The position numbers and the translations under genes are program-made. A stretch of 63,973 nucleotides of DNA, the filler included, from Folioceros fuciformis (lineage: Eukaryota): the NCBI GenBank assembly GCA_049999805.1. It is 8 parts of 8 records of this genome, joined end to end, with 100 filler letters (N's around TTAATTAATTAA, not from the genome) between each part and the next. Parts side by side here need not be neighbours in the genome. Positions count along the whole stretch, not along the records: positions 1 to 15,994 come from JBNGIO010002942.1; 7 more parts are not named here. One strand, given 5' to 3'. Shown piece by piece: positions 1 to 44,854 of this stretch (positions are counted from its first letter, which is position 1; every line of letters begins with the position of its first letter). The notes under the pieces were generated by a model that saw nothing but the letters and a program-made list of their open reading frames with translations, did not search any database and was not told the origin of the DNA.

Positions 1-1084
1 TCTCCTGTGCAGGCTACGAAGGTCTAGCCCCGGGCTGAGCACGCATCACAAAGCCTTGCAGCGACGTCCTCGATCAATTGATGCACCGTCTAGGTTGAGA
101 AAACGATCAATTTTGTTTGTAAGTGCATCTAGTTGAGATTGGATTGTGCATATGCTGCAAAGTATCTGCATTGTCCGATTCCAGGGGAGATCTTCGCTCC
201 TGGTAATGTCTTGCTGCAGGAGTTCTCCGAGATTGTAAAAGTCGGTGGATGGAGGATCGTGTTCAGCATGGAAATTTGAGTCCTGAAAATTAACTCTACT
301 CCTTCCTTGGCTTCGTTGATGCAGACAACGGGAGGAAACCAAGCTACTTCTTTGCAGGATAGGAGGAGAAGGAGGCCTTGGGAATCTGAAACGAAATTAA
401 GGCCAATCTAGTCAATAGGGATTCTGAGGTTTCTTAGCCACTAGGGATTGAATATATATGTTAGTGGCAGAGTCTAAATAGTTCCCTATTCTAGATCTCT
501 TGTGCCTGTTTCTTCAAGGCATCTTGGATAAATGCTTGTGGTACTTGCATAGTTATGCCTAGCAGAGCAGAGGAAACTGTGATATATACTGACTTAGACA
601 TATGAGGCAAGTGGCAAGGATATGTTGGGCACACGATCCAAAAGCCATTGAACAAAATGGCTGTTGAATTCTGTGCCTAGTTGTATTTCTCACCACACTC
701 TAAATATGTCTAGGACAGCAACATAATTGTTTTTGTAATTGAAAAAACTATTGAGTGATGCAAACAGGGGAATACATGTGATCTAATATGTCTGGCATAT
801 TTAGAACATATGCATTGACTTTCTGCACTAGTATGTAGTAGTTTCTTCCATAAAATAAATGCCCAAAGATGGTTTAGAGATGCTGCTCTGATACCATGTG
901 AAGAGAGCAAGTTGCTAGGCATAGTAGACAGAATATATGAGCACAAGCAGAAAAGGAAGTAATACACACATGAGAAAGTATGTCTTATATACAAGCCTAA
1001 GTGTCCTTTCGATATTAACCCTAAACTAAAGCTAACCATAATTGCTGATTATATAAACATAACCCTACGGGAATTATCTTAACA
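1..1084 (-). mobile_element. 5' end of a Ty1/copia-type LTR element (LTR 897-1084, PBS 885-896, long leader), abutting the integrase of the next element
   Basis: GCTCTGATACCA at 885-896 is the reverse complement of the Met-tRNAi PBS TGGTATCAGAGC. It directly abuts a TG...AACA-bounded 188-bp segment. Copia integrase C-terminal sequence starts immediately after 1084. Confidence 0.75.
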
Positions 1085-4000
1085 GGTTTTATCCAGTTTT
1101 CACGGGAACGTCTCTCCTGTGTAGTCTCTCTTGTAAGCCTTTGAGACTTCTGAATAACCAAGGAAAAGCAGGGGTCTAGCCCTATTATCTAACTTGCACC
1201 TCTTCTATTTAGGGACATAAGCATATGTTGTGGAGCCAAACACCCGCAAGTGCAACGAGCTTGGCTTCTTCCCCCAGAACACCTCATACAGAGTTTTTCC
1301 ATGTACTGCATTAGTCAACACTCTATTAAGTATGTAAGTAGCAGTTGAAATAGCTTCTGCCTAGTAGTGTTTGGGCAAACCTGCCCATCCAAGCATACTT
1401 CTAGTCATACCCATCAAGGTATGGTTTTTACGCTCAGCAACACCGTTTTGTTGTTGAGTACATGGAATGGCTAATTGACGGATGATCCCATGCTTTGAAA
1501 AAAGCTCATCATATCAATGTCCAATGAACTCCCCACCGTTGTCAATGCGAAAACACTTCACAAAATTGCTCGTTTGTTTCTGTACCATAGGAATCCAGGC
1601 TGCTATACACTCAAAAGCATCACTTTTGAGGTGAAGTGGAAACACCCAAGTGTAGCGTGAGTAATCATAAGTTAAAGTGAGGTAATACTCTGCTCCACCC
1701 AGTGATTTAACCTGCAACTTGCCGGCTATATCTGCATGTATAAGTTCCAGCACTGCATGAGCCCTCTAAGGCTGCTTGTTTTCGAAGGGAAGCTCCTTCT
1801 GCTTCGAGAAAACACAAGATTGGCACAGAGGCAGCTGCTTGAAACAGGAAGGCAGTTTCTCCCGATAACAATTCAGTGAAGACATGAGATTCCATTTTTC
1901 CCTGTTTTTATGTCCAAGTCTAGCATGCCAAGACTTGCTTCTGAGGTAGTTAAGGTAACAAAGGCCTCTGCATTAGCGGACAAACAAAGTTGATATAGTT
2001 CATTTACCAACTGACCTTTTGCTACGTGCTTTCCAGGTCTGGACAGGTCATACAGGCTACAGCTACCCTGCTCAAAGGAAAAGCCATACCTTCCCGACTG
2101 AGTGGTTGCCCTAAATGACAAGAGACTCTTTGACATGGTAGGAACATAAAGGACATCCTCCAACAGGACCTCTGACCCGTCAGTCAAGGTAAGGGTAACA
2201 GTACCCACTCCTCGTACGTCTATGCCTCTAGAATCCCCCACATACACTGACTGAACTGAGACATCAGTTTTGAGTGTGGAGAATAGATTTTTTTTATTGC
2301 AGACATGAGACGTAGCACTAGAATCTATGAACCAAGAGTTTGATGGAATAGCAGATGAGGACAAGCAGACTGTTACTGTTAAGATAGTCGAACTGCTTTT
2401 GTGGAGAGAAGATCCCTTGTCCTTGGCGGCCACATGTGCTTCGGAACGAGGATCCTTCTTGGGTTCTCCAGCCTTTTTCTTTCAGCAGTCCCTCTCCCAA
2501 TGTCCAGCAATTTGGCACCAATTATAGGTACCTTGCCATTTGATGGAGGGAGAAAGTTGGAGCCACCAGAACTACTAGATTGCTGGTAAGTCTTCTTCTC
2601 TTTCCCCCTTCCCTTCACAAACGGCTTGCCCTTAGCTGCAAAAAGAACCTTCTCTTACTCTTGAGCCCTGACCTGGCTTGTGTCTGCTGGCCTCCTCTTG
2701 CAGGAGAGCCCTAACCACATTATTCAAGTTCAAAGTATAAGGTTGATTCACAGCAGAGGCAACATAAGCTGTAGAGAGTCGAATTCTGTCCAGAGATAAA
2801 CGTTTGATAGGAGGAGGGCAAGGCACTAAACAACTGGGCAACCATTTCAACCTCAGTAATCTTGGCACCTAGAGCAGCCAACTGTGCTCGCAACAGCCTC
2901 AACTTGGTAATTCCTGGTCCCATAGGGTCTCCTTCCCTTATCCTAAACAAGTGAAAGTCACTTCACAGATTCATATAAGGTACAAACATTTTGTACCTTA
3001 TACGTATATCTAAGCTGAGTCCAGACTTCATGTGCTGTGTCTAGAAACTCAACCTCAATAACAGTCACGGCATCCAACCCAGACAATAAAATGGCAAAGG
3101 CTACTTTGTTGCCTTTGTCCCATTTTGTCTTCTCATCTGCTGTTGGTTGATGTGCAGCTGTGGATGGGACCAAGTAAGGGTTTACAATGCTCCCATCGAC
3201 ATACTCCCAAACATCCCTCGCATTCAACGTTGCTTGCATTCGAGCCCTCCAACTCTCATAGTTTACAGGTTTGCCATCAAACTGATTCTTCTCCTTAAAT
3301 TCACCCGAATAAGTACTAGCTTGAGCAGGAGTACCCATGTTGAAAGGAGGTAGGGCTGTATATGGGAGAGAGGAGAAAGCAGGGAACTGTGATTGCAAGG
3401 ATTGAAGGAAGGAGGCTTCTATGGCTAGATCCTCATCTACGACATTATCTGTGTCCCCAAACAACCACTCAAGGTCATAAGACATAAAGAGAAACAAAAC
3501 AACATCTACTGTAAGGAAACAATGTTTTTAATATTTTAAGATGTTGTTTTTAGGGTTAGATATAAAAACCCACTAACTCAACTGAAACGTTGCAGATGAA
3601 CATGAATCAACGACAGGTGGCAGAGTTCATCAACCGTCACCCTAGGCCAAGTCGCCGATTGGAGTCTGCTGAGTGCCCCTAGCACTGCACCTGCGCCAAC
3701 TTGCGAGATCCTCCTTTTGTCAAAGCTGGGATCTCGAGTTGAGTTGCGCCCCTACAGATCTGGTCGCCCACACTGCAGCACCATGGAAGAATCCTCGCGT
3801 GAAGGCACCAAGGTCAGCAGATAGGTGGCAACAAGAGGTGCGCGAGCAGACTCAGATCCAGATTCAGCGCGCTCCAATCTCAAGGTGAGAGCAGTTAGTG
3901 AACTCTGCACATTTTGAAGCAATTCATGCATAACCAGTACACGTTCTCCCTGGTTTATTAGCAAGCTGCATCCGATGCAATCTCCTAAAAGAGGGATCTC

Positions 4001-4691
4001 CTCAGCGCTGGGAACTCTCTTGTGTAAAGCCTCCCGCCTGGAGTCAGGAAAAAATCCACCGGTTTTGAACCTGTCTCTGAGATCCGTTCTTGAGTCTGGA
4101 AATTGAGTACTACTCGGAATTCTCCTGCAGATGTGACAGGAACGCGGAGATAAAGGTGGCTCCTCCAAGGTGAACTTGTGAGATCTCGCTGGGGAGGAGA
4201 CCACGTGATTGTGCCCACCTTGATGATCAGCTTGATGTAGGCAATTCCAGGGCTGCCTCCTCACAGATTGTGAGAAAGGATCATCCAGACATCGCCCGCG
4301 CCTCCGTGTCATCATGCAAGACCAATAGACTCCATTTCTTTTTATACCATTCACTGAAATTATCTAAACGTAGACAAAAAAAGTACTGCGCATCACAAAG
4401 TCGCACATTTCCAAAGAGGAAATTTGTGCACTAAGTGATAAAATAGAAACAGCCTATGCTAGCATTCTATATATTGGATCGATAGAGCTGGTGCTCTGAT
4501 ACCATGCTAATATATGCGGAAGCGTGCTCACAAAAGGAAGAAGAGCAATTAACTAGTTAAGGACCATGTGTCCTTAAATACAAAATGTTTGAGTGTCTTT
4601 GAGTTAACTCCCTATTTAAGACTCACATTTGCTAGGTGGAGTTCCAAGTTCTTCAACGATGACTTGTGATCAGCTAATCCTCTTCTAAACA
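1085..4691 (-). mobile_element. Degenerate Ty1/copia retrotransposon, 5' half: LTR 4505-4691, PBS 4493-4504, ~1.1-kb leader, gag, protease, integrase
   Basis: PBS (GCTCTGATACCA on +). gag N-terminus FDGKPVNYESWRARMQATLNARDVWEYVDG. Degenerate zinc knuckle (YNWCQIAGHWERDC), protease WFIDSSATSHVC, integrase LELIHADIAG / RIDNGGEF. Many stops and frameshifts. Confidence 0.92.
3752..4354 (-). CDS. Extra ORF in the copia 5' leader, upstream of gag (unknown function, short coiled-coil segment)
   Basis: 200-codon open frame between PBS and gag. Its segment VQSSLTALTLRLER resembles IQSQLDALTNKIDR in ORF 46-342, which lies in the leader of the neighbouring element. Confidence 0.4.
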   Translation of the reverse strand: MNGIKRNGVYWSCMMTRRRGRCLDDPFSQSVRRQPWNCLHQADHQGGHNHVVSSPARSHKFTLEEPPLSPRSCHICRRIPSSTQFPDSRTDLRDRFKTGGFFPDSRREALHKRVPSAEEIPLLGDCIGCSLLINQGERVLVMHELLQNVQSSLTALTLRLERAESGSESARAPLVATYLLTLVPSREDSSMVLQCGRPDL

Positions 4692-5829
4692 TTGAGGATA
4701 TCCAGCCCATCCTCGACCTCTTCTCCGACGCGATAGACTGGACTCCAAGGATTTGCACTAGGAACATCAACATCGGCAGAATCGTCGAGCCCAGCCTCAG
4801 CATTAACACCAAAAATCTGCAACAGGGAATTGTGGCCTGGTCTAGGCCTCAGGCGTGCATCTCCTGAAAGGCGCGTGTCTCGATAAGCAAGGGTGCATTC
4901 GTACGCCGCATGTGTGCTGAGCGCACAATGCTCGCGATCGTGCTGCGTTGCGTGCACGCCTTGAAGCATGGAGAGCGCAAGCGCCAGAGGCGGAGGAGCA
5001 TCTCTGCCTCGCCATAGTCGGGGAGCTATCAGGAGGGCACGCAAAATATGCGTGCACCCGACCCATGTGGTTTAGACCCGTGCTGGGCGCGGTTGGCCTA
5101 ACGGTCGCACCTACCTCCGGCTACCTACCAATCAGTGGACGGGGCGATTCAAGCCGGAATATGCCCAATTTGGGCTTTTCGGCTTATTTTCTGCCCTATT
5201 TATATTTATTATCCTATTTACATGCATATTTTTAGGTTATTTAATACCCGTTTTAGACATGTTTATATCTTTCCAGCTTTATTAGCCTATTTCCAATTGC
5301 TTATTTAGCATTTTAGTTTAGGATATTTTTTTCTCTTTCTATTTAAACATTTAAGTTAAGCTTAGGTTATCTAAATATGCTTAATTTTTAATTATTTTCT
5401 TAAGCAGATAACTTTTGATTTAGTGGGAGCCTACTTATGTTTTAGGCCTCATTTTAAGGCTAGTTTTCACCCCTACATTCATAGTGAGTGGGATTGATGA
5501 AATATATCTAGTTTAGGGCACTATTCATTAGGGCACCTTACTTAAACATTATTATATATTTAGGGCATTAAATAGTTACTTAATTAGTTGCTCTAGATAG
5601 TTAGTTGTTATATTAGTTGCAACTACCTAGTGGTTACAACAACTTATGGTTGTAACCACTTAGCCACCTAACCACTTAGCCTATGTAAAGGCTTGTACTC
5701 TTTACTTTCATAATTCCAATCATATTGTAGCACTTTTGCCTAAGAGCTATTGATTCTTATCATGTTCTGTAAACAAAAAGGGTGAGCTTAGAAGAGCATT
5801 GCCAACATTTGTTTGCTTTGAAAATCCTA

Positions 5830-6727
5830 ATGCAGTTAAGGGAGATGGACCTGGTAAGATACAGGAAAACAAGGAGTGGACATTTCAGGCTCAAGGTGAA
5901 AAAGTTTGAAGTTGGAGATTATGTATATTTGCATAGGAAGACTGACAACAATTGATACAAGTGCGAGTAGGATAATATTAAGGGTGAGAAGTGTGAAGTT
6001 GAATGGAATTCTGGAGTTGGAGGGAAAGGATGGTACAACTTGTTTGGAACACATGAAAAATTGTGCACCGTGTCATTTACCTCACTTGAATCCAATAATT
6101 GATGTGCAAGCTTTTGTGCCGAGAAAGGGATTTGCTTGTACAGTTTGTGGAGATTCTGGAGGTGATCATTGCATGTACCAGATGGGCAATGGTTTTGTCC
6201 AATGCGTGTAGCGGTTGACACATTGTGAGGTGCAGTATGTTCAACATGTATGTACGTTGATGAAAATTTTGTTTATTTGTCTTACCAACGAAAGATGGTC
6301 AATAGATTAAGGGGGGGGAATGAAGGTGTCGCAGCAAGGGAGAAGGAGTAGAGGACAGCTATTCCTTTCGTCGATCTCGTGTGTAACAAAACACCAAAGA
6401 GTTGCAGGATGACCAGTAGCCTTGGTATGCACGACGGAGAGGAAGCATCCAAGGGGAGGCATCCAAGAATTATGAGTGTGATCATTGTACTCACATCGAG
6501 GGAGGAGGAGTAGAGATAAGCTACTCCTTTCATCGAACTCGTGTGTAGTAAACCACCAAAGAGTGGCAGGATGACCTGGAGCCTTGGTGTGCACGACAGA
6601 GAGGAAGCACTCAAGGGGAGGCATCCAAGTGCATTGTTGACAAGAATATACGCGTATATCATATAGGGGCTAGCCACTCCAAATACACATGAATGCATGC
6701 TATATATATAATATATAAAAGTGTTCA
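5830..6727 (+). mobile_element. 3' end of a Ty3/gypsy element: integrase C-terminal tail with degenerate PHD finger, PPT 6309-6320, 3' LTR ~6321-6727
   Basis: Translations KFEVGDYVYL, IILRVRSVKLNGILELEGKDG, HMKNCAPCHLP, CTVCG and, after an internal deletion, VPDGQWFCP (PHD-type). Followed by AAGGGGGGGGAA and a TGAA...TTCA-bounded segment. Confidence 0.75.
6337..6629. repeat. Two diverged ~131-bp direct repeats (period 162 bp) inside the gypsy 3' LTR
   Basis: 6337-6467 and 6499-6629 align, and both end in AAGGGGAGGCATCCAAG. Confidence 0.9.
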
Positions 6728-6829
6728 AAGACGTCTAGGGTTCAGTTCAGATGTTGAGGAGCAAGACCTCTTGAAGCACGCCAATAGTCAAGTAAAATGT
6801 GACAAGGCTGACTATTTACCTATCCTTCT

Positions 6830-9800
6830 TGTAGGATTATTAAAGCCCAATGTGCTTAGACTAATGTGTTTAGTCTAAGATTAGTGTCTATTTGTTTAGA
6901 TTAGCTTAAGATAATCTTTAGGAAGCTTCCCTTCTTGCACAGCTTCTTGTGAGCTTCTTGTGAAGCTTCCTTGGGAACTCTTCTAGAGGGTATAAATACC
7001 CTCTTGAGCTCCCTTGCAAGATAAAGACCTTGCTTTCTCCTCTCCTCCTTCATCGTGTGGCTCCCCTAGTGATCCTTCAGCTGGTATCAGAGCAAAGGTT
7101 GTGTAGCAAGAGGGTGATGGCTGTACGTGCTGCGGATAAGATTCACAAAGGCATAACAAGGCTGTGAGGAAGGCATCAGAGTGAGGGCAGCATCCCGAGG
7201 GCCCGTGTGCAGCAACCTTGCTGCCCAGGGTACAAGGGGCTCCAGCTCTACCATGCTCAGACGCGGGCCGTAGTAGTGGCAGCGGTAGCGGCAGCGCGGG
7301 GCACCCCGCGCACCGTATGGAGTGCCCGACCTAGCATGGGGCACCCGCGCGCGCCACGCGGGGTGCCTGCCCTAGCGCGGGCATCCAGGAGGGCGCCGCT
7401 GCACCACCCCGCATCGTAGGGCACTCGCTCCTGCCAATGGTCTCACCATTGTAAATGTAGAAGGTAGCCTTCTAACAAAAGACGTGAACAGGAACAATAT
7501 GGAATCTTCGAAAGGTTCCAATGCCCTCATGATGAGAGGAAGGTCCACTTCAAAGGGGAAGTACAAGGAGTGAAGCCTTTCCCGAAGTAAATCTCGTAGC
7601 CGTAACAATGTTGAGTGTTACCATTGTCACAAAAAGGGTCACATCAGAAGGGACTGCGAGAAGTTCAAGAAGGACAAAGGAAAGGAGAAGAAGCAGAGCG
7701 ACAACAAGGCAAGGCCGAGTATCAAGCCTCACGAGGTGAATTTTGTTGATGATGGAGATGTTCTTATCTCTTCTTCCTTCGATTCTACACAATCGACAGC
7801 CGTGTATAGTCTCTAATTGGATAATTGACTCTGGAGCATCTTTCCATGTTACTCCGCATAGGGAGTGGTTTAGCACCTATGATGCTACTAGGAAAGGATG
7901 TGTTTGGCTTGGAAATAACTACGCATGCAAGATTGCAAGCGTTGGTGATGTGCAGCTGAAGTTTGACAACGGATCTTCATTCATATTGAAGGATGTTAGC
8001 CATGTTCCGAAGTTGACGAAAAGCATGATTAGCGTAGGGCAGTTGGATGACGCTGGCTACCACTGTTGGTTTGGGGATCATTCTTGGAAGATCTTCAAAG
8101 GTTCTCTTGTGTTAGCTCGTGGATTGAAGTGTGGCACTTTGTACTCACTTCATGTAACCATTGTCAAGGATCATGTGATTTGTGTAACGAAACAACCAAA
8201 TATTTCCTTGTGGCATTGTCGGTTAGGACATGTCTCAAAAAGGAATGAAGATCTTATCTCGTTTTGGTTACCTCCCTGCTTTTGCCTTCTCCGATTTCTC
8301 CATGGGTGAGCACTATTTGTATGGGAAACAGGCGAAGTCACCACATGGAGCAAGAGGTAAACACAAAAGTAAACCTCTTGAATTGGTTCACAGTGATGTT
8401 TGTGGACCTATGCCCACTACGTCACTAGGCGGTGCATCATATTTTGTCACTTTCATACATGATTTCTGACGCAAGGTGTGGGTTTATCCTTTGAGGAAAA
8501 AGGATGATGTTTTGACAATGTTTCAGAAATTCGTCACCCTTGTGGAGAATCAGTCTAGTCTTCGACTAAAGTGTCTAAGGATAGACAATGGTGGAGAGTA
8601 CGTTTCAAAGGCTTTCCAGTCATTCTGTGATTCCAATGGAATCAAGAGAGAATTGACTACCATGTATACTCCTCCCCAAAATGGTGTGGCTGAACGGATG
8701 AATAGGACCATCTAGAAGAGGATGCATAGTTTGTTGTCAAACTTTAGATTGCCTAACGGATTCTAGGCCGAAGCAGTGTCTACTGCGGTGCATCTTCTTA
8801 ACAGATCTCCTAATAAGGCTGTGGATGAGCAAGTTCCAGAGGAATTGTGGTCTGGAAAGAAGCCGTCTTACAAGCATCTACGAGTGTTTGGCTGCGAGGC
8901 ATACTACCATGTTCCAAAGGAGTTTCGAGACAAGTCGGCACCCAAGTCCAGAAAATGTATTTTTCTTGGCTATGGTAACTCTAGTGAGATGGGATACCGT
9001 TTATGGGATTCAGAAGCCAAGAAGGTTGTTTGCGGCAATGACATGTTCTTCAATGAGATCAAAATGCATAAGAAGCCTACTCCAACTGTGGAGCTGCGAC
9101 GGGTGGTCTTCCAAGAAGATGGACTTGATCGTCACGGACAGGTTGAACGTTGTGATGTGCAGGAACCCATTCCTCCACTTGTAGAAGAAGAGAGAGTGCA
9201 ACCAGCTCCGGTCAAGGCGCCTGTGCTTCGTAGGTCAGGAAGGATTTCATGTCCTCCTGACAGGTCTGTTGCATCTCTTGATTATGTCATGCTAACGGAT
9301 TGTGGGGAGCCCTCTTGTTACAAAGAGGCCATGTCAGTGACTGACAAGGACAAGTGGGAGAAGGCGATGCAGTCGCAGATGGATTCGCTCCACAAGAACC
9401 AAACTTGGGAGTTGGTTCAGTTGCCTAGGGGCAAGAAGGCGTTGCCATGCCAATGGGTGTATAAGATGAAGGACATACCCCATTATGGCAAACCCAAGTA
9501 CAAGGCACGATTGGTTGCTAAGGGTTTTAAGCAACAGCAAGGTATTGACTTTGATGAGATTTTCTCACCAGTTGTTAAAATGACCACCTTGCGATGTGTT
9601 CTTGGTCTGGTTGCGAGACACGACATGGAACTTGTCCAGATGGACGTGAAGTCGGCATTTTTGCATGGTGATCTTTAGGAAGAGATATACATGTAGCAAC
9701 TAGAGGGTTTCATTGAGAAAGGCAAAGAGAATCTGGTGTGCAGGTTAAAGAAGAGACTTTATGGTTTGAAGTAGGCACCTAGGGAGTGGTATTACAAGTT

Positions 9801-11170
9801 CCACTCATTTATGCTTTCTCAAGCCTACAAGCCTAGCGAGGAGGATCATTGCCTCTATACAAAGCAAGCTAAGGATGGAAGCTTGCTCATTCTGGTCCTA
9901 TAAATGGATGATATGCTAATTTTTGGGACTAGCAGTGATGAGATTTCAGCGTTAAAGTCAAAGTTGAATGCTCGCTTTGACATGACAGACTTGGGTGAGG
10001 CAAGCCATATTCTTGGCATGCATATTTGTCGAGATAGACAGAAGCATTTGCTTTACTTGTCTCAGACTAAATACATTAACAAGGTGCTTCAACGTTTCAA
10101 TATGGAGAAGGGGAAGGTATTGAGTACTCTGTTGCCTCCATATATGAAACTTTCGAGCAAGGATTGCCCTAGCTCTGTGGAGGACAAAGCTGAAATTGAG
10201 AAGGTTCCATACTCATCAGCTGTAGGGAGTTTGATGTATGCAATGATTGCTACACGTCCTGACATTGCCTTTGCAGTGGGAGTGGTTAGCAGGTTTATGT
10301 CAAACCCTGGTAGGAAGCATTGGGAGGCAATGAAAGGAGTTATGAGGTACTTAAATGGTACAAAAGCTTTGTGCATATGTTTTGGTAGTGAAGATGCATC
10401 TGTAGTGGGATATACGCAAGCCAATTATGCAGGGGATATGGACAAAAGGAGGTCCACATCAAGTTATGTCTTCATGTGCACTGGAGGGGCAGTCTCATGG
10501 CGATCTCATTTGCAATCGTGCATAACGCTATCTACCACAGAAGCCGAGTATGTTGCAGCGACTGAGGCGTGCAAGGAAGCCATGTGGCTTGCTCGATTAG
10601 TGGGAGATTTGGGGATCAAGGTTGAGCCGCCAGTGTTGCATTGTGATAGCTAGAGTGCTATCCAATTGGCGAAGAATCTAGTGTTTCATGCGAAGACCAA
10701 GCATGTGGAAGTGAAGTATCACTTCATTCGAGAGGTGTTGGAAGACAAGAGGGTACAGCTTATCAAAGTTCACATCAGTCAGAACCCTGCAGATGTTCTT
10801 ACCAAGGGGCTCTCTACGAAGCAATTCACACAAGCTTGGACACTCATGGGCATGACGTAGACCACTCTTCTATGAAGGTAACTTAGCCTTTAAGTGAGAG
10901 GTTGTAGGGTTATTAAAGCCCTATGTGCTTAGACTAATGTGTTTAGTCTAAGATTAGCGTCTAGTTAAGTATCATTAGTTTAGATTAGCTTAAGCTAATC
11001 TGTGGGAAGCTTCTTGCGCAGCTTCCTGTGCACTTCTTGTGAAGCTTTCTAGGGAGCTCTTCTAGAGGGTACAAATACCCCCTTGAGCTCCCTTGCTATT
11101 GAGACACTGAGAGTGTGACCTCTCTTTCTCCTCTCCTCCTTCACCATGTGGCTCCTCTAGCGATCCTTCA
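6830..11170 (+). mobile_element. Two-LTR Ty1/copia element (Tnt1/Tork-like), gag largely deleted, pol degenerate
   Basis: LTRs 6830-7079 and 10903-11170 (TGTAGG...CCTTCA), PBS TGGTATCAGAGC 7082-7093, PPT 10892-10901. Motifs: CYHCHKKGHIRRDC, WIIDSGASFH, LELVHSDVCGP, PQNGVAERMNRT, KARLVAKGF, QMDVKSAFLHG, KHVEVKYHFIRE. Confidence 0.95.
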
Positions 11171-11172
11171 AC

Positions 11173-11845
11173 ATGCGCCGCTAAAACTATGGTCTTTTAG
11201 TGATGAATGTTGATAGAAGGTTTGACATTGGACCTATGGACAATCATTTTGATGGAAGAGTATTCCACAATGTGTTCACCAGCTTTGTTGAGAAAACAAC
11301 AAACGACAATTTTTGGCTAGTGGTTATGCATGGTGTGGAAGATGCTCACACTATGAGAGACTCTATGAGGAAACTTTGTAAAGGGGGTGGCTTGGTCTCA
11401 TTTGTCTGGAGTAAGACAAACATGGCAAAATGACAGAGGAGGTTTTGAGAGTGTGGAATGTATAACAATTGGTTGGTGTGTAAAGGAAGGAAGTAGTAAA
11501 GAACACACCACAATGATGCCAGGTCCACTGCAGGGAACCTTTAATGGCGGAAGATCTATTATACCACACAATACTGCCGTCAAAAAACATGTCTACCTCT
11601 CCCACGATAAGCGTGTCGTCTGCCCATATCAGAGACCATTGGGGTTCATGGGGAGGATTGTGCGGAGCTTCAGCAGGGAGGGGGAGTGGGTTGTGGATGC
11701 ATGCTTAAGCAGCAAGACTACTTTGTCGACAGCATTGCTTAGTGGGCGACATTGTGTTGCAATAGAGGAGACAAGAGATGCACTACCTATATTCCTTAGC
11801 GAATCCATGGGTATGAAGTGTTGTCTGATGCGCATGAAGAGCTAA
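11173..11845 (+). pseudogene. Degenerate beta-class amino (N4-cytosine/N6-adenine) DNA methyltransferase-like domain (N6_N4_Mtase type)
   Basis: CPYQRP-LGFMGRIVRSFSREGEWVVDACLSSKTTLSTALLSGRHCVAIE matches the beta-class pattern HPTQKP..L..I...S.EG..VLDPF.GSGTT..AA...GR..IGIE. Upstream FVWSKTN...VECITIGW matches the IIWxK...E segment. One frameshift near 11430 and one stop. An acidic tail follows to ~12171. Confidence 0.72.
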
Positions 11846-14321
11846 CTTTCAAGCTGCATCAATGAGGACCTTCTCAAGTCTAACCCAAGGAGGTTTGCAT
11901 AAGCGAGAAAGACTTCACACAGGCGCAAGTTGTTTCTCTAATTGCAAAGTGAAGGATCTGGCGAGCCACCGAGGCCTTGGAACACAGTCAGCAAACTCTC
12001 CAGCATGTGTGGGAGGGCCCTGATGGTGAGGATGGTGGCGATGAAGACAATGCAATTGATGATAAGGCGGTAGAGGAGGTTGACAACTTTGATGCAGACG
12101 ATAGATCGCGCTTTCTCAATGTGAATGTTGTGTTGGATTCTGAGGCTCCCCAAGATCCTCCCGTGGTATAGAGTTCTCATAGAGTGGAGACAAGTTTTTG
12201 TAAATTGTTAATGTAGGAACAAAACTTGACGTGTTGAAGGCCTAACCTTCCCCTTACATGGTATGATATTTATTTGGAGCCCACTCACTTTTTTCATTAA
12301 ATAAGAAGCGGGCACCAGTCAGCCGGCGGCTCCCCCCTACCGTTCTGCATGCGTGCTGAGCACTCTGTGTATTTCATTACCGCTTGTAGGGTCGCAAGCT
12401 TAGGGATTCTGGTCATACCTCGATTTGATGTATACTACGAATGGTGTATCTTTTCGTCAAGGAGGTCTACCTCTCTACTAAGGGGGGTAGGACATTCACC
12501 CCCTTGCAGCTTTCTCGTGTTCTATGCTGACATTGTCAAAGCCAACGGTGGTCCAATCATGAGCCACCTTAACCTGACCTCCAGTTGGCATACCTTCGAC
12601 CCCATCAACTATCAATATGTCCTCACCTATGGAGTCCATCCTACATGTCCTTAATTCAAAACTTGCACCCAATCTCAACACCGTAAGTTAAGTAAAGAAT
12701 AGAGAAAAAAAAAAGGTACAACACTTAGGGACACGTCTTTCCCCTTAGACTATGTAGTCTAGACTTTGCAACTCTACTATGTCTACACTAGGTTAAACTT
12801 GAGAAATTTTCTAAATTAAAAAAAAATACATTTATATTTATGTGAAAAAAAGCCTAAACTCTTCAAAAGGGCAATTCTCTATGTGAAATTTTGGCATGGA
12901 AAAACACATCTAAGCATCCAAAGGGGTATGAGGAGAAACCCCTTTATTTTAGATGTTATTGCAAGTCCTCTCGGGTTCATCTACTACCCCCTAAATTTCC
13001 CATCCCACATGCACATATTTCTATGGCATCTTTCCATCCTTCAAAAGATGCGAGAATTCCATCTAGAGAACCTTGGTATATGAGAATCAAGCCTATGTTC
13101 AATATTGATGACTTTGAAGATGGAGAGCCATCTGACATCGCTCAAATTTGCAAGCGTTTGGGATGGACACTTGTGAGCATTAAGATGTGTATCGAAATTA
13201 CATCTAGTATTGTATTCCCAATTTTAAAAAGTTGGTTGTTCTTGGTCTTTAGGCTCTTGTTGACATGCTCTGAATTCGAGCATGTAGATGAGCGGTTTGA
13301 TTCTAAATTCTCACTCTTATTGCGTTCCTAGTATCAAGAAGTTTAGGGTTTAGGAATTATTATTCAATGGCCTTATTGCCAAAAGCCAAATATAGAATTG
13401 TTATATTACTCAGGGGTATACTATTATTTTTGTCATTCATGGTGAGTAAGTATAGACCATTTGAAGATAGCAGCCTTGGAGGCTCTATATGTGGGGTTTT
13501 GTCCAAGCAATTTGTTTGAGTAACATAGTCATACTTTTATCTCTGTATTAATCTCTTATGTCCCCTGGCCACATTGTGGATCACAACTTAGTGCATAAGC
13601 CTTGACTTTTAGCTTGTTTTCTTATTGGTTGGCCTCAAGTTCTAAATGCATGCTTTAGATGCATCACATTAGTGGCTTCATTCTCAATTTTGATCTCAGC
13701 TTAGCAAACTTGTTGGCTTTGCAAGTATCCATAGCTGTGCTACTTCGCAATGCAACAATTGCTTAAGGGTGCATATCAGGAAACATCCTTTCTTAATGCT
13801 TAGATAAATCAAAAGATGAGGCCACGATAGGAAGAAAAAGAGCCCAACTTCCAACAAAGGCTATCCACATAGAGGCCTCCTTAACCAGTAGACTTGTATT
13901 TTCAATTGTGAAATGTAGACACACTTGTTGATGATTAGGGTTGATTTCTATTAAAGCCTATTCACTAGGAGAGTTATGCTTTGGAACAAAGACTGTAGAA
14001 ATTATAAATTTGTGTCTACAATGACATAAATAGGAAGATTAAAATAACCATTTACCACTTAGGTTATAGAGACAAAATTGTTTTCTACTAATCATGACAA
14101 GGCCATTTGTAGAGTAGTGGTAGGTGTTTCTCTCAAAAGTGGACAAATTTTTTTTAGTTGTGAGTTCTTTATGTCTTGCAATGGTTATTTGAGCATGTCA
14201 AAATTTGACCAAACTAAGCACTAACTACTTAAGCATTTCAAGGACTTTTCCTTTTCCTTTTCTCAAGCTTTAGTTTCTAGACAAAGACAAGGATATATAC
14301 ATAGTAAAGAATAAGGAACTA

Positions 14322-14471
14322 ATGATGGCTTTCACACAACTACTTGGTACAGCTGCATGTGCTACATTATTTGCAGTTCTGATGGCATTATGGCACATTT
14401 ATCAACACTTGATAAACTATACAGAGCCTACATACCAACGTTATATAGTGCGCATCATATTTATGGTTCCT
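14322..14471 (+). CDS. LAZ1-like: LAZ1-homolog / TMEM184 (OST-alpha family) membrane protein, first coding exon
   Basis: WHIYQHLINYTEPTYQRYIVRIIFMVP is the hallmark plant LAZ1-homolog sequence. The exon ends at a phase-0 GTAAGT donor (14472). Confidence 0.93.
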
Positions 14472-15451
14472 GTAAGTGCATGTGAACTAACATATCATGT
14501 ACAATGTTGTATGCATAAACAAAAGTTCAACTGCTTGTGCTTTCCTTCCTTGCTTACTCTTATATGTGTACACATTTCATGGGGCCAATTCATATTTATT
14601 TCATAAATTGCGTTATGAATTAAAAATATTCCTTTTAAATTTTATATCTTTAAATTATTCTTTTGAGAAATCATGGAAGAAAAGAAACCAAACTTTCAAT
14701 CCTTTGTTATCATCTTTGTTTTGTTAATATATTTCTAAGATTAGGAAAATAAGGAAAAGTATATAGTTGTAGGTTGATAAAGTACACAAGAGGAAGAAAA
14801 TTTGCTTGCAAAACATGTTGTTTGCTATCTTTCCTAGCATCTTCCTCACTCTGGAGACATCTTACATACCATCCTTTATCCTCTCCTCCCCTCACGTGCT
14901 GAAACCTTTCTCCATAGCCCAAGCAACATCTATGTGGGGGAACTCCCAACTATCTTCTTTTCCCTTTCCCTTCGCACCATCTCTCTCTTCCCGCCCTTCC
15001 TTGTGACTTGGACAACATCTCTCCCTTCATTCCATGGCGTCTACCACGCTTACTTGATTTACTCCCTCTAGGTCATGTACCACCTTTATGTTAATCCTAC
15101 ATTTTTCTGCTCTCATTACCTTCTCCCTCTTAATCTCACTCCTCATGGGTTACATTACATCTTGTGCTCTCTCTCACTCTCATTGTAATCCCTTGTTAAC
15201 CCATTTCCTTCAACACCACTTGTAGAAGTTCCATTTACACATACCCCCCATCTACACTTGTCCTCCTTATCCTTGAGCCTACCTTTATTCTCACATCACC
15301 CTTTTCCTCACCACAAAGATAAGGATACATCATAGGAGATCACATATATACAAAAAATTCTTCTTATTTGAATAAAATCACAAAAGATTTATCTAGGCAT
15401 GTGTACTAGATTAGAAAGATTATTGATAATACTTCTTGAATTACACAACAG

Positions 15452-15525
15452 GTTTATGCAATGGCTTCTTTTTTATCATTATGTGTATCTAATGGTGCTA
15501 TCTACTTCAGCTCAATTCGGGATGT
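15452..15525 (+). CDS. LAZ1-like: LAZ1-homolog / TMEM184, second coding exon
   Basis: CAG acceptor 15449-15451, reads VYAMASFLSLCVSNGAIYFSSIRD in frame with exon 1, and ends at a GTGCGT donor (15526). Missed by the ORF track. Confidence 0.9.
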
Positions 15526-15994
15526 GTGCGTAACAAGATCGCAAATGTTTGATTTTTGTTCATTTTTGTCATCTTCTTGAAAGAATAGGTTAATGCTTTA
15601 AACTAAAGTAGAGATGGACGCATGCATAAAAATGGGTCAAAGAGAAATTTTGGAAAGTTGGCCAAGTTGAAATCTTCTTTCTTAAGCTTAATTGTACAAG
15701 CAATAAGATATCTAAATTTCTCTCAAACAAAGTGTTTCGCTAATTAGTTTTATGGTAGAATAGTGATATGGTTTCTTTTTATTCGAGGGTTAGCCCCTAG
15801 TGTTCCTACCATGGTTTATCTCCCTCTTTATGGGTAGATGGGTTTTTCCATCTTGTTTTCTCAAGTAAATAAATCATTTAGTTCATCAATCAAAAACGTA
15901 TATATGTTGAATGTTCAAATATAGGTTGTGTGTTTTCTTTTTTAAAAAATATTTAATTATATATTTAATCGGATTTGTTTAATAATAATAATAA

Positions 15995-16094: not shown

Positions 16095-16105
16095 CAGCTG
16101 CATAT

Positions 16106-16504
16106 TGTTGAGATGTCACCCCCGCCATGCTCAAAGGAGGTTAAAACAAGTTAGTTGAAGCAAGATGCAGAATCCCAAAAATAAGAGCACTATAACAAAG
16201 CTCTTAAACTCAAATAAAAAGGAGAATTACAAAAACAACACAATACAAGTGAAGAGGGAGTTAGACTGCAAATACTAAGTGGGTTCATCCCTTCTTTTAT
16301 GGACCTATGGGTGGCACTCTCATTTCGTGCCCAATATGGGATAAATGACCCCAAACCCTACAATACTTTTTTGCCTAACATAGCAAAGTCTAATAAGCTA
16401 TATTTATATATTGATCATAACCTTAATCACTCTTACCACTAATTAGTACAAACTCAATAAGCTAGATTAGCACTAATTAATCTCAACATTAATTATGCTT
16501 AACA
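16106..16504. mobile_element. Solo LTR with 5-bp TSD CATAT
   Basis: TGTTGAGATG...CTTAACA flanked by CATAT (16101-16105, 16505-16509); nearly identical to 51188-51589. Confidence 0.93.
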
Positions 16505-32149: not shown

Positions 32150-32688
32150 TTGTTCCTTGCTTGGTCAAGTGCTGTAGGCCGGCCATGTCTTATGGCGTCT
32201 GGTAAGGTTGTGGGGAGGAGATACCCAAGAGGGAAGTGTGTTCCCTTCTTCCTTTTGTTTGGGGTTAGTCTAGTGACTCTTGCCGGGTAGGATTAGTCCG
32301 TAGGGAAGTGTAGAAGGTAGTGGTGTCGTTGCTGGTTGCTGGTAGTTGTTGGTGTTGGTGCTGGAGCGAGAGAGTGAGTGAAGTGAGTGAAGGAAGTCGC
32401 AGATCTGAGAGGTTAGAGTCGTTGTAGTGACTGGAGTGAGTTTGTGGGCACCGAGAGAGGTGCAGCTGACCGCCGGACAGCGAGGCCTGTCCTACGCCTG
32501 ATCGGAGCTGGAGGGGAGCCCTCGAATCCGTCATCGAGTCGATCAAGTCCGACCCTCCGTCCACAGCAGCAAGGAACCCCATCGCTCCTTCGTGGGAACG
32601 ATACCCAATGTCTGAACGACAGTGGGATAAGTGTGGCCACTAAAGGTGGAACTCGTCGGCAATCCGTGCCCGGGGTTTTGCCTCCACA
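32150..32688 (+). mobile_element. 3' portion of an LTR-like terminal repeat
   Basis: ~32572-32688 aligns with ~54753-54867 (GGAACCCCATCGCT...GATAAGTGTGG...CCCGGGGTTTTGCC.CCACA). The similarity stops at ...CCACA in both. Confidence 0.6.
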
Positions 32689-32957
32689 GGTAACCCTAGC
32701 TGCAGTTGGGATTCAGCAAAACTTGAAGCTAAACTACAAGTCATAGAGTTCAGGTAACCCTAGCTGCAGTTGGGATTCAGCAAAGCGTGAAGCTAAACTA
32801 CAGGTCATAGATTTTAGGTAACCCTAGCTACAGTTGGGATTCAGCAGAACATGAAGCTAAACTACAGGTCATAGAGTTCAAGTAACCCTAGCTGTAGTTG
32901 GGATTCAACAGAACGTGAAGCTAAACTACAGGTGACAGAATTCAGGTAACCCTAGCT
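32687..32957. repeat. Tandem repeat, 64-bp unit, ~4.2 copies
   Basis: CAGGTAACCCTAGCTGCAGTTGGGATTCAGCA...GAAGCTAAACTACAGGTCATAGAGTT recurs at 32687, 32751, 32815, 32879 and partly at 32943. Confidence 0.95.
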
Positions 32958-33934
32958 ATCTCTTCATATCTGCTATCCAAAGCTGGAGCAATTGAGCACA
33001 TGTAGCAATCCAGTACGCAATCCCTAACTGTCACTCCTCTCCTTGTGCAACTAAAACTGATCACATGATCGCGATGGGCGGGCAATCATGCCCTGAAGAT
33101 TTAGATTCTCCTGAAAAGAATGGTGAGTCTGCCTTGAATTTCTCAAGGGGAGGTAGACTAGAAGCCCCAAGAAGAATTGACAATTGATTGCTGATACATT
33201 GCAAATGACCAGAATATTCTTCCTTCAAGGAAGAGAGTGCATGTTGTAGGCGCTTCTCCCTTTCATATATAACCTCTAGAAAAATATATTGTCTTGCACG
33301 CAATTGAGCTACACGTATCTCAATGCGATTACAATAAAATTCCACCACAGAATAAATATATTCATAGGATATATATAATATTTCATAGGATATTCAGAAT
33401 CAAAATCTTCTAAATAGTATCAACAAGAAACTCCAAATTAGATTGCAATTTCTTATTATCTATATGATGATATATAGGTGGTTGCTTCAATTTTTGATTT
33501 TTGGTCACTTGTTTGGAATGGCTTCTACAAGCCTCAATTTCATGATGTCTATCTGATCTTTGCTCTCGTTTCAAATTGTGGAGCCTTCTTTGTTCTTGCA
33601 ATTGCCTCTTCCAAAACTGTCGTATCAAAACTTGATAATTATCGAGTGTCTCATTGGTCCATGGCAGTTTGGAAGTGGGCGGGGAAATGTGTGATTCGCG
33701 CTGGTGTCTTGAAGGAAATTCACCATGCGACATTGCAAGATACAAAGGATTCAGACACCATCACGGGGCTCTGATAGCATGTGTAAATACCTCTTGTCCC
33801 TAGCTAAGCAAGCGAGCAATAAACAAAGGTAATATATATTCAACAAAGCGCAAAAGTATTATATACAAAATAAAGTCTCGTAACCCTAAATAACTAGGTC
33901 ATCATATTAACCCTTGCTGGTTATATATCCAACA
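32958..33934 (-). mobile_element. 5' end of a copia-type element (LTR 33780-33934, PBS 33768-33779, leader) abutting the RT of the next element
   Basis: GCTCTGATAGCA (PBS, one mismatch) followed by a TG...AACA 155-bp segment. It shares ATATTAACCC and TTGCTG.TTATATA with LTR 897-1084. Confidence 0.72.
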
Positions 33935-36035: not shown

Positions 36036-37296
36036 TGTTAGAAAACAAGAAATCCCAAGATCAGGTCTTGGATCAATTCATTTCTCATAAGTAGTCCTTA
36101 CACACATATATAGCTTTAAGGCATGAACATATCTCGTTGGATAAGCAATTTATCTCGAGACAACCTATGTACTCTAATATAAACTAGAAACTACCAAATC
36201 CACAACTTAACTGGTTCACTAATAATTAGAACTAGTCTAGTGTGAACCCAACGGGTATAACTATCGCCACATGAGTTTAGCTCATATAGAGCTCAATAAC
36301 TGAACACTCCCCCTGGAGCTCAACTTAGCATCTGTATGCCTAACATAGCTCGGAATTTCTTCAGCTTCTTTGCTCCCATTGGCTTAGTGAATATATTGGC
36401 TATCTACTTGTCTGTGTTCACATACACAAGATCAATAGCTTCATATACAATCCTTTCTCAAAGAAAATGATAATGTACCTTAATTTGCTTCGTCCTCGCA
36501 TGAAACACTAGGTTTCGTGCTAACTGTATGCTACTAAGATTGTCACAATAGATAACAACCTTGTCATTGACCTGCAATCCAAAATCTCCAAGTAACTTAC
36601 AAATCCAAGTCACTTCACATGCTGCCATCGCTGCGCCGCTATATTCAGCTTCTGTACTAGACAAAGCCACTGTAGGCTGCTTCTTGCTGCTCCATGTTAT
36701 TGCTGCACTCCCAAGTGAAAACATGAATCCACTTGTAGATCTACGATCAGTAACACTACTTGCCCAATCTGCATCTATGTACCCACACAAGTTTATCTCT
36801 GAATTTGTAGCATAAAAGAGAGCATGATCCATAGTTGCCTTCACATAGTGCAACGTTTGCCTTACTGCATCCAAATGTGGCTTTCTTGGCGCTTGCATAA
36901 ACTGACTCTGCAGTCCCACTGTATAGTTCAAATCTAGTTTGGATATATTGAGATATATCAAGCTACCTACAATCTTCCTATACATTGTTGGATCTTCAAG
37001 TGCTTCACCATCATGAGCACTGAGCTTCAGATTTTGATCCAAAGGAATCGAAATTGGCTTACACTTAGCCATACCATACTTGGTTAGTACATTCGACGCA
37101 TACTTCTGCTGTGATAGCCAAATGCCTGTGTTGGTTCATATAATTTCAATGCCCAAGAAGAACCTCATTTCACCTAGGTCCGTCATCTTACACTCTTGTT
37201 GCAAAAGTTCCTTGATCTGCTCCACTTGATCCAGCTAATTACCTCCAATAGATTAGATCATCCATGTAGATGATCACAAAGACCAGTCCTTTTGTA

Positions 37297-42200: not shown

Positions 42201-43054
42201 TGGTAAAGTTCCATAGTATGGTTGCCCAAATTGTGTGAAGTTAGGTCAGCCATGGTCTTTGGAAAATGGAGTACCTTGCAGAGCGTAAGCATGCCTGCGC
42301 CCTTCCAGATGTGAGCATAAGTCATGTTGTCCAACTCTTACTTTAAAGTGAATAGGCACACAACATTAACATGTACTCACTTTCTAAGCCGCTTAGGAAA
42401 TTCCTTCTAGCCAAGAGCTATATAGGCTTGGGCATCAAGAGTTGGAGTTATGAGATGCACTCATGCATGCAATGAACCTCAATCGATCTTAGTCATCACA
42501 TGATAACAACTTCCCTCTCAAGGATATTGTATTGTTTTCATGATCTGCCTATACTCCACTCAAAAACCCTAAAAAAGCTATGATCAACAAACGAAGTCCT
42601 CTACATGTGCTCATCAACTAATGATCACGCGGCTCGTTATGTCCAAAAACATTAGTGGCAAGTAGGGGGGATGCATCCCTAAGGGTGGGCTCCATTGGCA
42701 TTGCAAGGTTTGCTTTATGGGCAATCAGGGCACTATAAGTGTCCTCCATTCATACGCTGGCGTCATCAGAATGTACTTGTTCTTCATCGTCGATATCATC
42801 AAACTCTTCCGCTGGGGCTTGTGCTCCACAGTGTGAAGGGGAGCCTGGTTCGATGTGTGGTCATAACAAGGCTAATTTCTCCTTAACAATCTTTTTTGTC
42901 TGCCGCATACATAGGTGCTTGCGTGGCGTCAAGTGGAATCCGTAGTATACAATCATGGTTTTTCTTGTGTACAACTTCTGGACATTTGGAGGCCGCTTGG
43001 GTCTGCCCTTCTTCTCACATATTTCCTCGAAATCTCCATCACCTCTGCGAACAA

Positions 43055-43303
43055 TTACTCTCTAACATACTTGCCCTCATAGGCACCAGTATAATATGTT
43101 TGCCACCAATGCACCAACAAGTAAGGCTCCCCACCTGTCATATGTGTGCTCACAACTTTTGCTAACCAAAACTCTTGATTATGTATATCGCCCTCACACA
43201 GTGTGATTATGAACATCTCTTTGTGTATTTTCAAGACATCTCCATTCATCCGCGAAATCTCAGCCTCATGCCTGCCACTACTTTGATATGCGCCTATGTA
43301 CAT
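43055..43303 (-). pseudogene. Protein-like ORF fragment, probably transposon-derived
   Basis: FWLAKVVS...LLVHWW looks like a beta-rich globular segment, but no family could be assigned. Confidence 0.3.
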
Positions 43304-44854
43304 GGGCCTCTATGGTAGGTCGCGCATAGTACTTCCTCTAACATAGCTTCTTCTAGTATCTACATGGGATGAACAACCTTTCCGCTTCACACCTATTGTA
43401 CCACGTTCAAGGGGTCATCAATACCAGATTGATATTGTTGTTCACAATATCAACAATTCACTCTTGATCTCACCAGAAGTCTTGCCACCTCACGTTTTCC
43501 CCATCAGTCAAGTATGTAGATAGTTTCAACAACCCTTTCTTCACATGTCCCACACATTTCCCAGTAGTCATCTGCCCTTCCTACCCCTTCTTGTCCTTTG
43601 GCTACAGTGATATTACAGTTGTTGGTTGAATGAATGTATCTAGAACATCCATAAGATACTCTAGCCCTTCCTTGGGTTCGCACAAAAGGGAGGTTGCGTA
43701 TTACTTGCTCCAGGTTACAGTGACCCTTTGCCTAGTTTCTCCTCCCGAGTTATTTTAAATTGGTGTTGCTATGAAAGTTTGTTGAGCTTCTTCACCACAG
43801 CCCTGTACATGTGTTGACCATCACCTTGGAGGACTGGCCAAACAAACCCTCTAAAATCTAGAACTTCAACCAAATGCTTATTCAGAGTATATAAGCTTTG
43901 CAGAATTCAGATGAGTTGCGGTACTATCTTTGCCTCTTTGTGCCTTAAATACTTGGAGAAACAAGAGAACATTGGATCTACTTGGCCATGTGTATGGTTG
44001 TGGAAGATCACATGTGCAGAAACTCTCCTCAAGATGGTCAGTTTGAATGATCCTTGTCATTTTTTTGTGTTTCGAGTGATAGAGTGTTTAGCTACTGCCA
44101 AGGCAAGGCCTTTTTTTACCAAAGGTGTTCTTGGCCCATGGCAATTTCACTCCTTGGCTTTTGTTTTTTTCTTTTTACCAATATCTATTCCTTGGACCAT
44201 GAACTATGAATGTAGGGCCAAACTAGAAGTTCCTTAGGCCTTAGCGTTTTAGAATAATCGAATTGACTATATAAGGGAGAGGGGTCCCCATTCAGCCATC
44301 GTTGTTTACTCGGGTGGGGGAGTGGCTCGCTCCACCACGGTGGCTAAGTATGGAGTGTACTGGCTGAACCAGGTGGAAATAGCAACCCTAGTTGTGGAAT
44401 CCAGACAGATAGTGAGCAGTGGGGCACCACTAGGGATGGAGCACAAATGAAGAAGTATCCTCCGGCACCACGACTTTGTGTGCTTCCAAAACGGGAAGAG
44501 ATCAGCAACGGGAGGTGGACGTGGTGGCAGCAGCGGGAGAGAAGTGAAGCATTGCGGTGAGGACGAGCGAGAGGCCAGCACACGGAGCTGGATATCATAG
44601 AAGACACCGGGGGGAAGCACTCATCTGAGGAGGCTCGAGGGCAGGGTAGCTAGAGAAAAGATGGAAGGTGAAGGGGGTACTTCAGCAGCGGTCGAGGAGG
44701 TGGTGAGGCAAAGTGCATGTATGGCTAGGAAATTGAACCAAAAGAAAGTTAGTAGTAAAGAGGAGGGAACCACCCCAGAATGGGACATGGGAAAGTCGAG
44801 GGAGATAATTGGAAGAAGCAAACCAGGATGGCACCTCAGGCTGTAGCAGTAATT

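Follow-up and report, generated by a model that had tools for sequence, protein, structure and literature searches.

A methyltransferase relic in Folioceros fuciformis is probably a fragment of the ParB-methyltransferase cargo of a DNA transposon

A decayed gene for a beta-class amino-methyltransferase was identified in a stretch of Folioceros fuciformis DNA. We consider it likely that this is a pseudogene fragment, namely the methyltransferase part of a ParB-methyltransferase cargo gene of a cut-and-paste DNA transposon. The stretch analyzed, here called the window, comprises 63,973 nt in 8 joined records, of which positions 1-15,994 are JBNGIO010002942.1; neighboring parts are not necessarily adjacent in the genome. 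The parent element would have been bounded by terminal inverted repeats (TIRs) and would have encoded, on opposite strands, a DUF7869 transposase of the DDE type and a multi-exon gene joining a ParB-like part to a beta-class N6A/N4C-type methyltransferase. A parS-like palindrome array would have been situated between its two genes.

Results

A decayed beta-class methyltransferase gene in the window

The methyltransferase is encoded at 11185-11845 in two frames, A and B, with one frameshift between them. A family profile was built from 16 relatives (404 positions) and run against all 2660 open reading frames (ORFs) of at least 15 amino acids (aa) in the window. Frame A matched profile positions 65-148 (E 3e-11) and frame B matched positions 158-260 (E 4.5e-26), while the third-ranked ORF of the window reached an E of 0.53. 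Frame B was also matched by Pfam PF01555 (N6_N4_Mtase) over residues 79-139, with an E of 6.8e-7 and 29.9 bits at a gathering cut-off of 26.7. By these scores, the methyltransferase match is far above chance.

It was noted that the top NCBIfam matches of the relic were adenine methyltransferases including CcrM, at E 3.6e-4 and 1.9e-3 and far under the cut-offs, and that its best sequence match in the PDB was M.RsrI (E 0.027). With frame B as the phmmer query against 1.84 billion representatives, 42 matches were recovered at an E cut of 0.001. No homologue was found at an E of 0.001 or less among 196 longer candidate proteins. When the relative P0017 was aligned to the window by tblastn, its aa 92-173 corresponded to 11188-11424 and its aa 182-291 to 11444-11767, the two segments being in different frames. 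Relic and P0017 are colinear, and no intron is present at the frameshift.

The order of motifs is that of the beta class, with the motif IV position (approximately 11203-11214) lying ahead of motif I (11696-11722). The frame A peptide, NYGLLVMNVDRRFDIG...FVWSKTNMAK* (asterisks denote stops), contains NYGLLVMNVD, and the frame spans MRR*NY before strand 4, then NVDR (codons from 11203), and then a W-x-K-x-N block (FVWSKTN). The frame B peptide, ECITIGW...VVCPYQRPLGFMGRIVRSFSREGEWVVDACLSSKTTLSTALLSGRHCVAIE...; PYQRP...EGEWVVDACLSSKTT...GRHCVAIE, includes the blocks ECITIGW, CPYQRP (the equivalent of xYQKP in its clade), EGEWVVD-ACLSSKTT with a degenerate motif I, and GRHCVAIE. At the motif IV position, the relic reads N-V-D-R in place of (D/N/S)-P-P-(Y/F/W). 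At motif I, it reads D-A-C-L-S-S-K-T-T in place of the glycine-rich loop for S-adenosylmethionine, D-x-F/C-x-G-S-G-T, a position at which the relatives possess D-L-C-S-G-S-G-T. The relic codons at 11696-11722 (gat gca tgc tta agc agc aag act act) are separated from the family's D-x-C-S-G-S-G-T-T by C>T and G>A transitions alone.

In-frame stops were located at 11182-11184 (TAA), 11431-11433, and 11843-11845. Because of these stops, the frameshift, and the degenerate state of both motif IV and motif I, this methyltransferase copy is, to judge from its sequence, dead and functionless now. The preliminary description of this DNA had recognized a dead beta-class amino-methyltransferase of bacterial type, with the motif order of that class and with a DACLSSKTT that transitions alone would convert to the family motif. 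Our results agree with it on each of these points, and all of the peptides that it quoted are present where it placed them.

Downstream of frame B, an acidic ORF at 11953-12171 may be a remnant of the acidic C-terminal tail of the relatives, a resemblance in composition only. Tails of this kind, with F-D motifs, end the relatives P0004, P0011, and P0016. Neither the family profile nor Pfam produced a match to this ORF.

The relic groups with a eukaryotic methyltransferase clade

The relatives recovered by phmmer were of two kinds. The first is prokaryote-like and is characterized by DPP(Y/F) and (H/Y)PTQKP. The second possesses D-I/L/V-P-Y/H/R-G, xYQKP, GRxCVAVE, and long low-complexity acidic tails, and the CPYQRP and GRHCVAIE of the window are features of this second, eukaryotic kind. 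A maximum-likelihood tree of 42 rows was then considered, from which 8 near-duplicate or fragment rows and the rows without motif I were left out. In this tree, the rows of the second kind numbered 27, with the window and Ginkgo Gb_37443 (P0011) among them, and were split from the 15 prokaryote-like rows (support 100/98). The window grouped with P0010, P0012, P0017, and P0042, which are of the DLPR type, at 86/88 and with a branch length of 1.44. Judging from these motifs and the tree, the relic belongs to the eukaryotic xYQKP methyltransferase clade, separate from the prokaryote-like rows. The named relatives are from the fern Ceratopteris richardii and from Ginkgo biloba, which fits the earlier placement of the relic in a plant genome.

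The motif IV position was examined across 80 metagenome loci, the selection of which is given below. DIPY was found in 46 of these loci and DIPH in 9; NIPY, DPPY, and DPPW were found once each, and in 22 loci no motif was found. The loci with DPPY and DPPW probably come from prokaryotes. In P0010 and P0017, the nearest relatives of the window copy, the motif is DLPR. The preliminary remark that the copy lacks a canonical DPPY or SPPY is accurate as far as the NVDR of the relic is concerned. However, the odd motif IV of the window is not only decay, because non-canonical forms (DIPY, DIPH, or DLPR) characterize the eukaryotic clade as a whole. An aspartate at motif IV is usual in N6-adenine enzymes, and [DN]-[IL]-P-Y is the active-site motif of the Erm/KsgA adenine methylases. 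By analogy, DIPY may still be catalytic.

The fold comparison was made on the relative P0023 and not on the window copy. The AlphaFold (AF2) model of P0023 has a mean predicted local distance difference test score (pLDDT) of 68.7, with most of the core (approximately residues 80-300) near or above 90, and D105-I-P-Y108 directly follows the strand at 99-105. Its Foldseek neighbors were CcrM (6pbd, E 1.1e-13), M.MboIIA, M.BceJIV, N4CMT, M.RsrI, M1.HpyAVI, and M.PvuII.

Related loci lie in transposons with a ParB-like gene part

We scanned metagenome contigs with the family alignment, and the 490 pattern matches obtained yielded 263 relatives, of which 80 loci were kept. These loci are not rows of the tree and are linked to it through the Ginkgo proteins P0011 and P0084 and through profile matches. 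The methyltransferase was present in 80/80 loci, a ParB-like ORF of approximately 550 aa (ORF2) in 48/80, and a transposase ORF of approximately 890 aa in 8/80. Where more than 1500 nt of upstream sequence was available, ORF2 was found on the same strand and at most 1.5 kb from the methyltransferase in 35 of 40 loci.

The ORF of approximately 890 aa matched Pfam DUF7869 (E ~1e-52 in 5 of 43 scanned ORFs). It contains the acidic blocks IDGMDQ, QLDNT..ENKN, and GHTHD.IDQ and a C-terminal FWIAKV...VHWY, and it is putatively a DDE-type transposase. TIRs of 37 nt were identified at 180-216 and 7737-7773 in locus L025 (97% complementary) and at 3144-3180 and 10918-10954 in locus L008 (81%). The related elements measure 7.6-7.8 kb between the TIRs, with termini AACAC...GTGTT in both loci. 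When these two copies were compared, no target-site duplication could be defined. Nucleotide identity among the copies ranged from 63 to 98%, and therefore they constitute a multi-copy mobile family. Some copies, in fern-like contigs, appear young: L025 and L027 share 96% identity, their transposase and ParB-like ORFs are open, and the TIRs are 97% complementary. The earlier conjecture that the methyltransferase family is transposon-borne is thus matched by related loci in which a TIR-bounded element carries a DUF7869 transposase and a ParB-like part together with the methyltransferase.

Near-perfect palindromes with a TCGAT(G/A) core were encountered between the transposase and ORF2 in 9 of the 12 loci with enough upstream DNA. 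Their density upstream of ORF2 was 2.15 per kb, compared with 0.23 per kb elsewhere. The likeness of ORF2 to ParB was obtained from a fold search, because Pfam returned only a sub-threshold DUF6551 (E 0.02-0.08). The ORF2 model (mean pLDDT 65.5) was matched first by the ParB/Noc structure 7bnr (E 2.3e-5, probability 1.0, approximately 290 columns) and then by KorB and sulfiredoxin. The PDB sequence search gave no match for the transposase or for ORF2.

ORF2 and the methyltransferase most likely form one spliced, fused gene, since both a splice junction and two gene models indicate their union. In L008, a GTAAGT donor encloses the ORF2 stop, and the sequence of the exon that follows, NHKVYMKIQE..., corresponds to that of Ceratopteris richardii KP509_1Z236600 (P0075), which is 56% identical to ORF2. 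The Ginkgo models Gb_37443 (P0011) and Gb_10123 (P0084) join a ParB-like part, 45-48% identical to ORF2, to the methyltransferase. By this evidence, the two Ginkgo models would seem to represent transposon cargo and not host methyltransferases. It was also observed that the P0084 model skips the motif IV exon, and the gene models are probably imperfect. An origin of the family from endogenous viruses was set aside: of 11 pattern matches in viral contigs, 2 encode a relative, both weak and without a ParB-like ORF or transposase.

A decayed DUF7869-type transposase relic in the window

A relic of the DUF7869 type lies on the minus strand, 31 kb downstream of the methyltransferase relic and in a non-canonical layout. 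Pfam PF25273 (DUF7869) matched it at 43907-44056 (E 5.4e-8, 33.1 bits, cut-off 26). The transposase profile produced matches at 43058-43309 (E 2.9e-8), 43910-44056 (E 3.8e-5), and 42864-43061 (E 0.051), and tblastn reached an E of 1e-7. A C-terminal FWLAKV...VHWW block is included. The transposase and methyltransferase relics are probably separate remnants, because they are 31 kb apart and their layout is not canonical. Together, they show that the genome of the window was colonized by the transposon family. No relic of the ParB-like ORF2 was found in the window, the best profile match having an E of 2.5. A methyltransferase-like match near the transposase relic (44434-44544, E 0.55) and ORF2 matches at 42911-42988 (E 0.05) were taken as chance.

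A copia insertion adjoins the 5' end of the relic

A copia retrotransposon lies directly to the left of the methyltransferase relic. Its long terminal repeats (LTRs), at 6830-7080 and 10903-11170, begin with TG and end with CA. They are identical in 218 of 245 aligned columns (Kimura two-parameter distance 0.12), and a primer-binding site, TGGTATCAGAGC, starts at 7083, two bases past the left LTR. Methyltransferase homology stops only a few codons short of the right LTR edge (11170/11171), where the adjoining MRR*NY resembles the IRKRNY of P0023; the copia therefore truncates the 5' end of the gene. The flanks of the copia, CTTCT and ACATG, differ at 5 of 5 positions, so that there is no target-site duplication. 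The simplest reading is that the copia arose by recombination between two copia copies, or else that upstream sequence disappeared in some other way.

It had been proposed that the copia split the gene, with the short frame VKCDKADYLPIL (6792-6827, +) as the preceding helix, and that a gypsy had struck upstream. VKCDKADYLPIL is not supported as the missing helix, given its chance-level score, the lack of a target-site duplication, and frames that do not join. When the N-terminal parts of 6 full-length relatives were run against the window by tblastn, it did not appear among the 8 best matches of any of them, and it was not reported in the N-terminal profile search. As for the gypsy, no such domain was found upstream, where ORFs of at least 80 aa in 3500-6829 were scanned. 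The retroelement at 1873-3527 (-) carries gag/Pol_BBD of the copia type, and the retroelement domains found upstream are of that type only. A third LTR copy of the truncating copia's family was noted at approximately 49090-49400, and a direct repeat of 139 nt (86% identical, 6329-6467 and 6491-6629) lies just left of the copia.

Other features of the window

An ORF at 14274-14606 (+) matched Pfam Solute_trans_a, the organic solute transporter Ostalpha family, with an E of 3.3e-13, and is probably an exon of a host gene some 2 kb downstream of the methyltransferase relic. Direct repeats at 16105-16504 and 51187-51589 are 97-98% identical and 35 kb apart in the window. A large nested element could have them as its LTRs, or they could belong to a single LTR family as two separate copies; the far more decayed DUF7869 relic between them would be odd if they bounded one young element. 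Tandem arrays were noted at 37217-37656 and 32688-33007, with periods of 40 nt and 64 nt. A run of N occupies approximately 41370-41420 and appears as X in a translated ORF. The coordinates of the principal features are collected in Table 1.

Table 1. Features of the window and palindrome arrays of related loci.
Feature	Position	Strand	Basis or remark
Copia LTR retrotransposon	6830..11170	+	LTR repeats, alignment, Pfam Pol_BBD, gag_pre-integrs, SH3_retrovirus, RVT_2
Methyltransferase relic, frame A	11173..11433 (ORF 11185-11433)	+	Family profile, tblastn with P0017; alone no Pfam match
Frameshift, frame A to frame B	11425..11445	+	P0017 alignment, ORF list
Methyltransferase relic, frame B	11444..11845 (ORF 11369-11845)	+	PF01555, family profile, phmmer, M.RsrI
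Acidic ORF	11953..12171	+ (same frame as frame A)	Composition only
Decayed DUF7869-type transposase relic	42864..44056	-	Pfam, transposase profile, tblastn
Palindrome arrays in related loci	L047 4103-4300; L008 6720-6833; L016 671-800; L060 747-920		Candidate parS-like sites

Comparison with published systems

The closest description concerns Sola1-1_Ec32 of the brown alga Ectocarpus, reported by Dinatale et al. 2025 (PMC12477816). This element is 21.5 kb long, with 282-bp TIRs, termini AACCG...CGGTT, and a 4-bp target-site duplication. Opposite to its transposase, it carries a gene of 1104 aa for a ParB-like part and an N4C/N6A methyltransferase, for which the authors propose self-binding and self-modification. 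The related loci resemble it, by description, in being TIR transposons with ParB-like and amino-methyltransferase cargo opposite to the transposase and with AAC...GTT termini. They differ in being fern and Ginkgo relatives, with 7.6-7.8 kb between 37-nt TIRs, and the window copy, unlike the Sola1-1_Ec32 cargo, is a dead fragment. With these termini and the same cargo and orientation as the lead, the related elements may be of the Sola1 type.

In the red alga Bostrychia moritziana, Plavaka (EnSpm-type) transposons carry the accessory genes PAG2 and PAG3, an N6-adenine methylase-SET gene and a ParB-like-2-oxoglutarate (2OG) oxygenase gene, and tandem inverted repeats that adjoin the ParB-like gene are proposed as binding sites (10.1101/2025.02.11.637652). 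Common to both systems are cargo with adenine-methylase and ParB-like domains and repeat arrays beside the ParB-like gene. However, the Bostrychia domains belong to separate genes, with SET and oxygenase partners and in another superfamily, whereas here ParB-like part and methyltransferase are in one gene. Fusions of ParB with a methyltransferase are described from phages and plasmids, and the combination of ParB with an N6_N4 methyltransferase is enriched in phages (PMC12704722). The ParB-methyltransferase module may have originated in bacteria or phages.

The clade shares its fold and motif order with CcrM, M.RsrI, M.MboIIA, M.BceJIV, and M.PvuII, as seen in the P0023 model. It departs from the prokaryotic PF01555 enzymes in possessing D-I/L-P-Y/H/R for (D/S/N)PP(Y/F/W) and xYQKP for (H/Y)PTQKP, as well as in its introns, its eukaryotic transposon setting, and its separate position in the tree. 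The preliminary description had also drawn attention to the Marchantia and bdelloid N4C enzymes. Membership of the same superfamily is correct, and the bdelloid N4CMT (8s9o) ranks 8 among the structural neighbors of the P0023 model, but the likeness is at the superfamily level only. MpDN4MT1a/b of Marchantia carry TSPPY (10.1101/2021.02.12.428880), and N4CMT, which is encoded by a host gene, has a chromodomain (PMC8885841). Unlike these host genes, which have S at motif IV and are not transposon cargo, the clade has D, and S-P-P-Y/F is absent from it.

Eukaryotic acquisitions of the superfamily were surveyed by Iyer et al. 2016 (PMC4738411), who state that few are seen in land plants. In the literature searched, we found no report of ParB-methyltransferase transposon cargo from a land plant (fern or gymnosperm) and no mention of DUF7869. 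Such cargo is in print for algae, and its presence in land plants appears to be unreported.

Discussion

The relic is best explained as the methyltransferase part of transposon cargo, and its present state would have arisen in steps. A copia insertion would have removed the 5' part, a later rearrangement probably deleted DNA upstream, and the relic would afterwards have gained stops, a frameshift, and changes that are mostly C>T and G>A. In intact relatives, the ParB-like part may bind the palindrome array of its own element and so bring the methyltransferase onto element DNA. This targeting is suggested by the ParB/Noc-like fusion, the adjacent palindrome arrays, and the location of all these parts inside the TIRs. 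The target base is probably N6-adenine because of the D at motif IV. The purpose of such self-marking is speculative and could be to couple transposition to replication or to protect against silencing by the host. In bacteria, Dam times IS10/Tn5 transposition to replication.

Several observations weigh against this explanation. The window has no ParB-like exon and the upstream DNA has been replaced by the copia; no TIRs were identified around the relic; and the transposase relic is distant and does not lie on the side expected from the canonical layout. For these reasons, the membership of the relic in an element is deduced from its relatives only. The probable Solute_trans_a exon lies close downstream. 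The window copy shares 26-46% identity with any one relative, its branch in the tree is long, and there is no starred clade below the one of 27 rows. The DLPR subfamily nearest to the window may be non-catalytic by sequence, because R takes the place of the aromatic residue of motif IV. Self-marking, the adenine target, and the binding of palindromes by the ParB-like part are put forward as proposals only.

The gaps at the locus could also be expected of a pseudogene of a domesticated, non-mobile host methyltransferase-like gene, as could the neighboring host-type exon and the annotation of relatives as genes in Ginkgo. We regard this as unlikely, since the clade is encountered in TIR-bounded multi-copy elements wherever its context can be read. 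The Ginkgo models include the ParB-like part of the transposon, and a DUF7869 relic is also present in the window.

It is quite improbable that the fragment is cargo moved secondarily, as a retrocopy of messenger RNA or through capture by another element, and not a resident transposon copy. The relic is colinear and intron-free where fern-type loci are split into separate ORFs, and the methyltransferase part alone is present, as a secondary move would predict. However, no poly(A) tract follows 12171, and the copia accounts for the 5' end. Single colinear ORFs are likewise present in P0010 and P0017, the nearest relatives, so that the absence of introns may be a trait of the subfamily.

A third alternative concerns the substrate, namely that the family methylates RNA or protein and not DNA. 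Some eukaryotic acquisitions of the superfamily are proposed to have shifted to RNA (PMC4738411), and motif IV is non-canonical here. The top structural neighbors of the P0023 model are, on the other hand, all DNA methyltransferases, and palindrome arrays adjoin a gene in which the methyltransferase is joined to a ParB/Noc-like part for DNA binding; we therefore consider this alternative highly improbable. We give next to no credence to contamination of the assembly with bacterial DNA or to a recent acquisition straight from a bacterium or phage: PF01555 is chiefly prokaryotic and the NCBIfam resemblances include CcrM, but the relic adjoins a copia LTR, carries stops and a frameshift, groups with the eukaryotic clade, and possesses xYQ(K/R)P and not (H/Y)PTQKP.

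With the relic regarded as transposon cargo, a broader proposal can be made, although we hold it to be rather doubtful at present. Ferns, Ginkgo, and the organism of the window would host transposons, probably of the Sola1 type, with the full ParB/parS-like/adenine-methyltransferase module, and intact copies would write N6-methyladenine (6mA) or N4-methylcytosine (4mC) on their own DNA. If true, this would constitute a transposon-encoded epigenetic self-mark in land plants and a possible enzymatic source for part of the disputed non-5-methylcytosine methylation signal in large plant genomes. The relic itself is without function, and its value is as a pointer to ParB-methyltransferase cargo in land plants, previously reported for algal transposons. 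The apparent status of Ginkgo Gb_37443 and Gb_10123 as transposon cargo is a warning for annotation, and the family supplies a candidate writer to consider wherever fern or gymnosperm genomes are said to contain 6mA or 4mC. The young-looking related copies offer a system in which self-methylation by a eukaryotic transposon can be tested, together with the base that would be modified and the purpose that this would serve.

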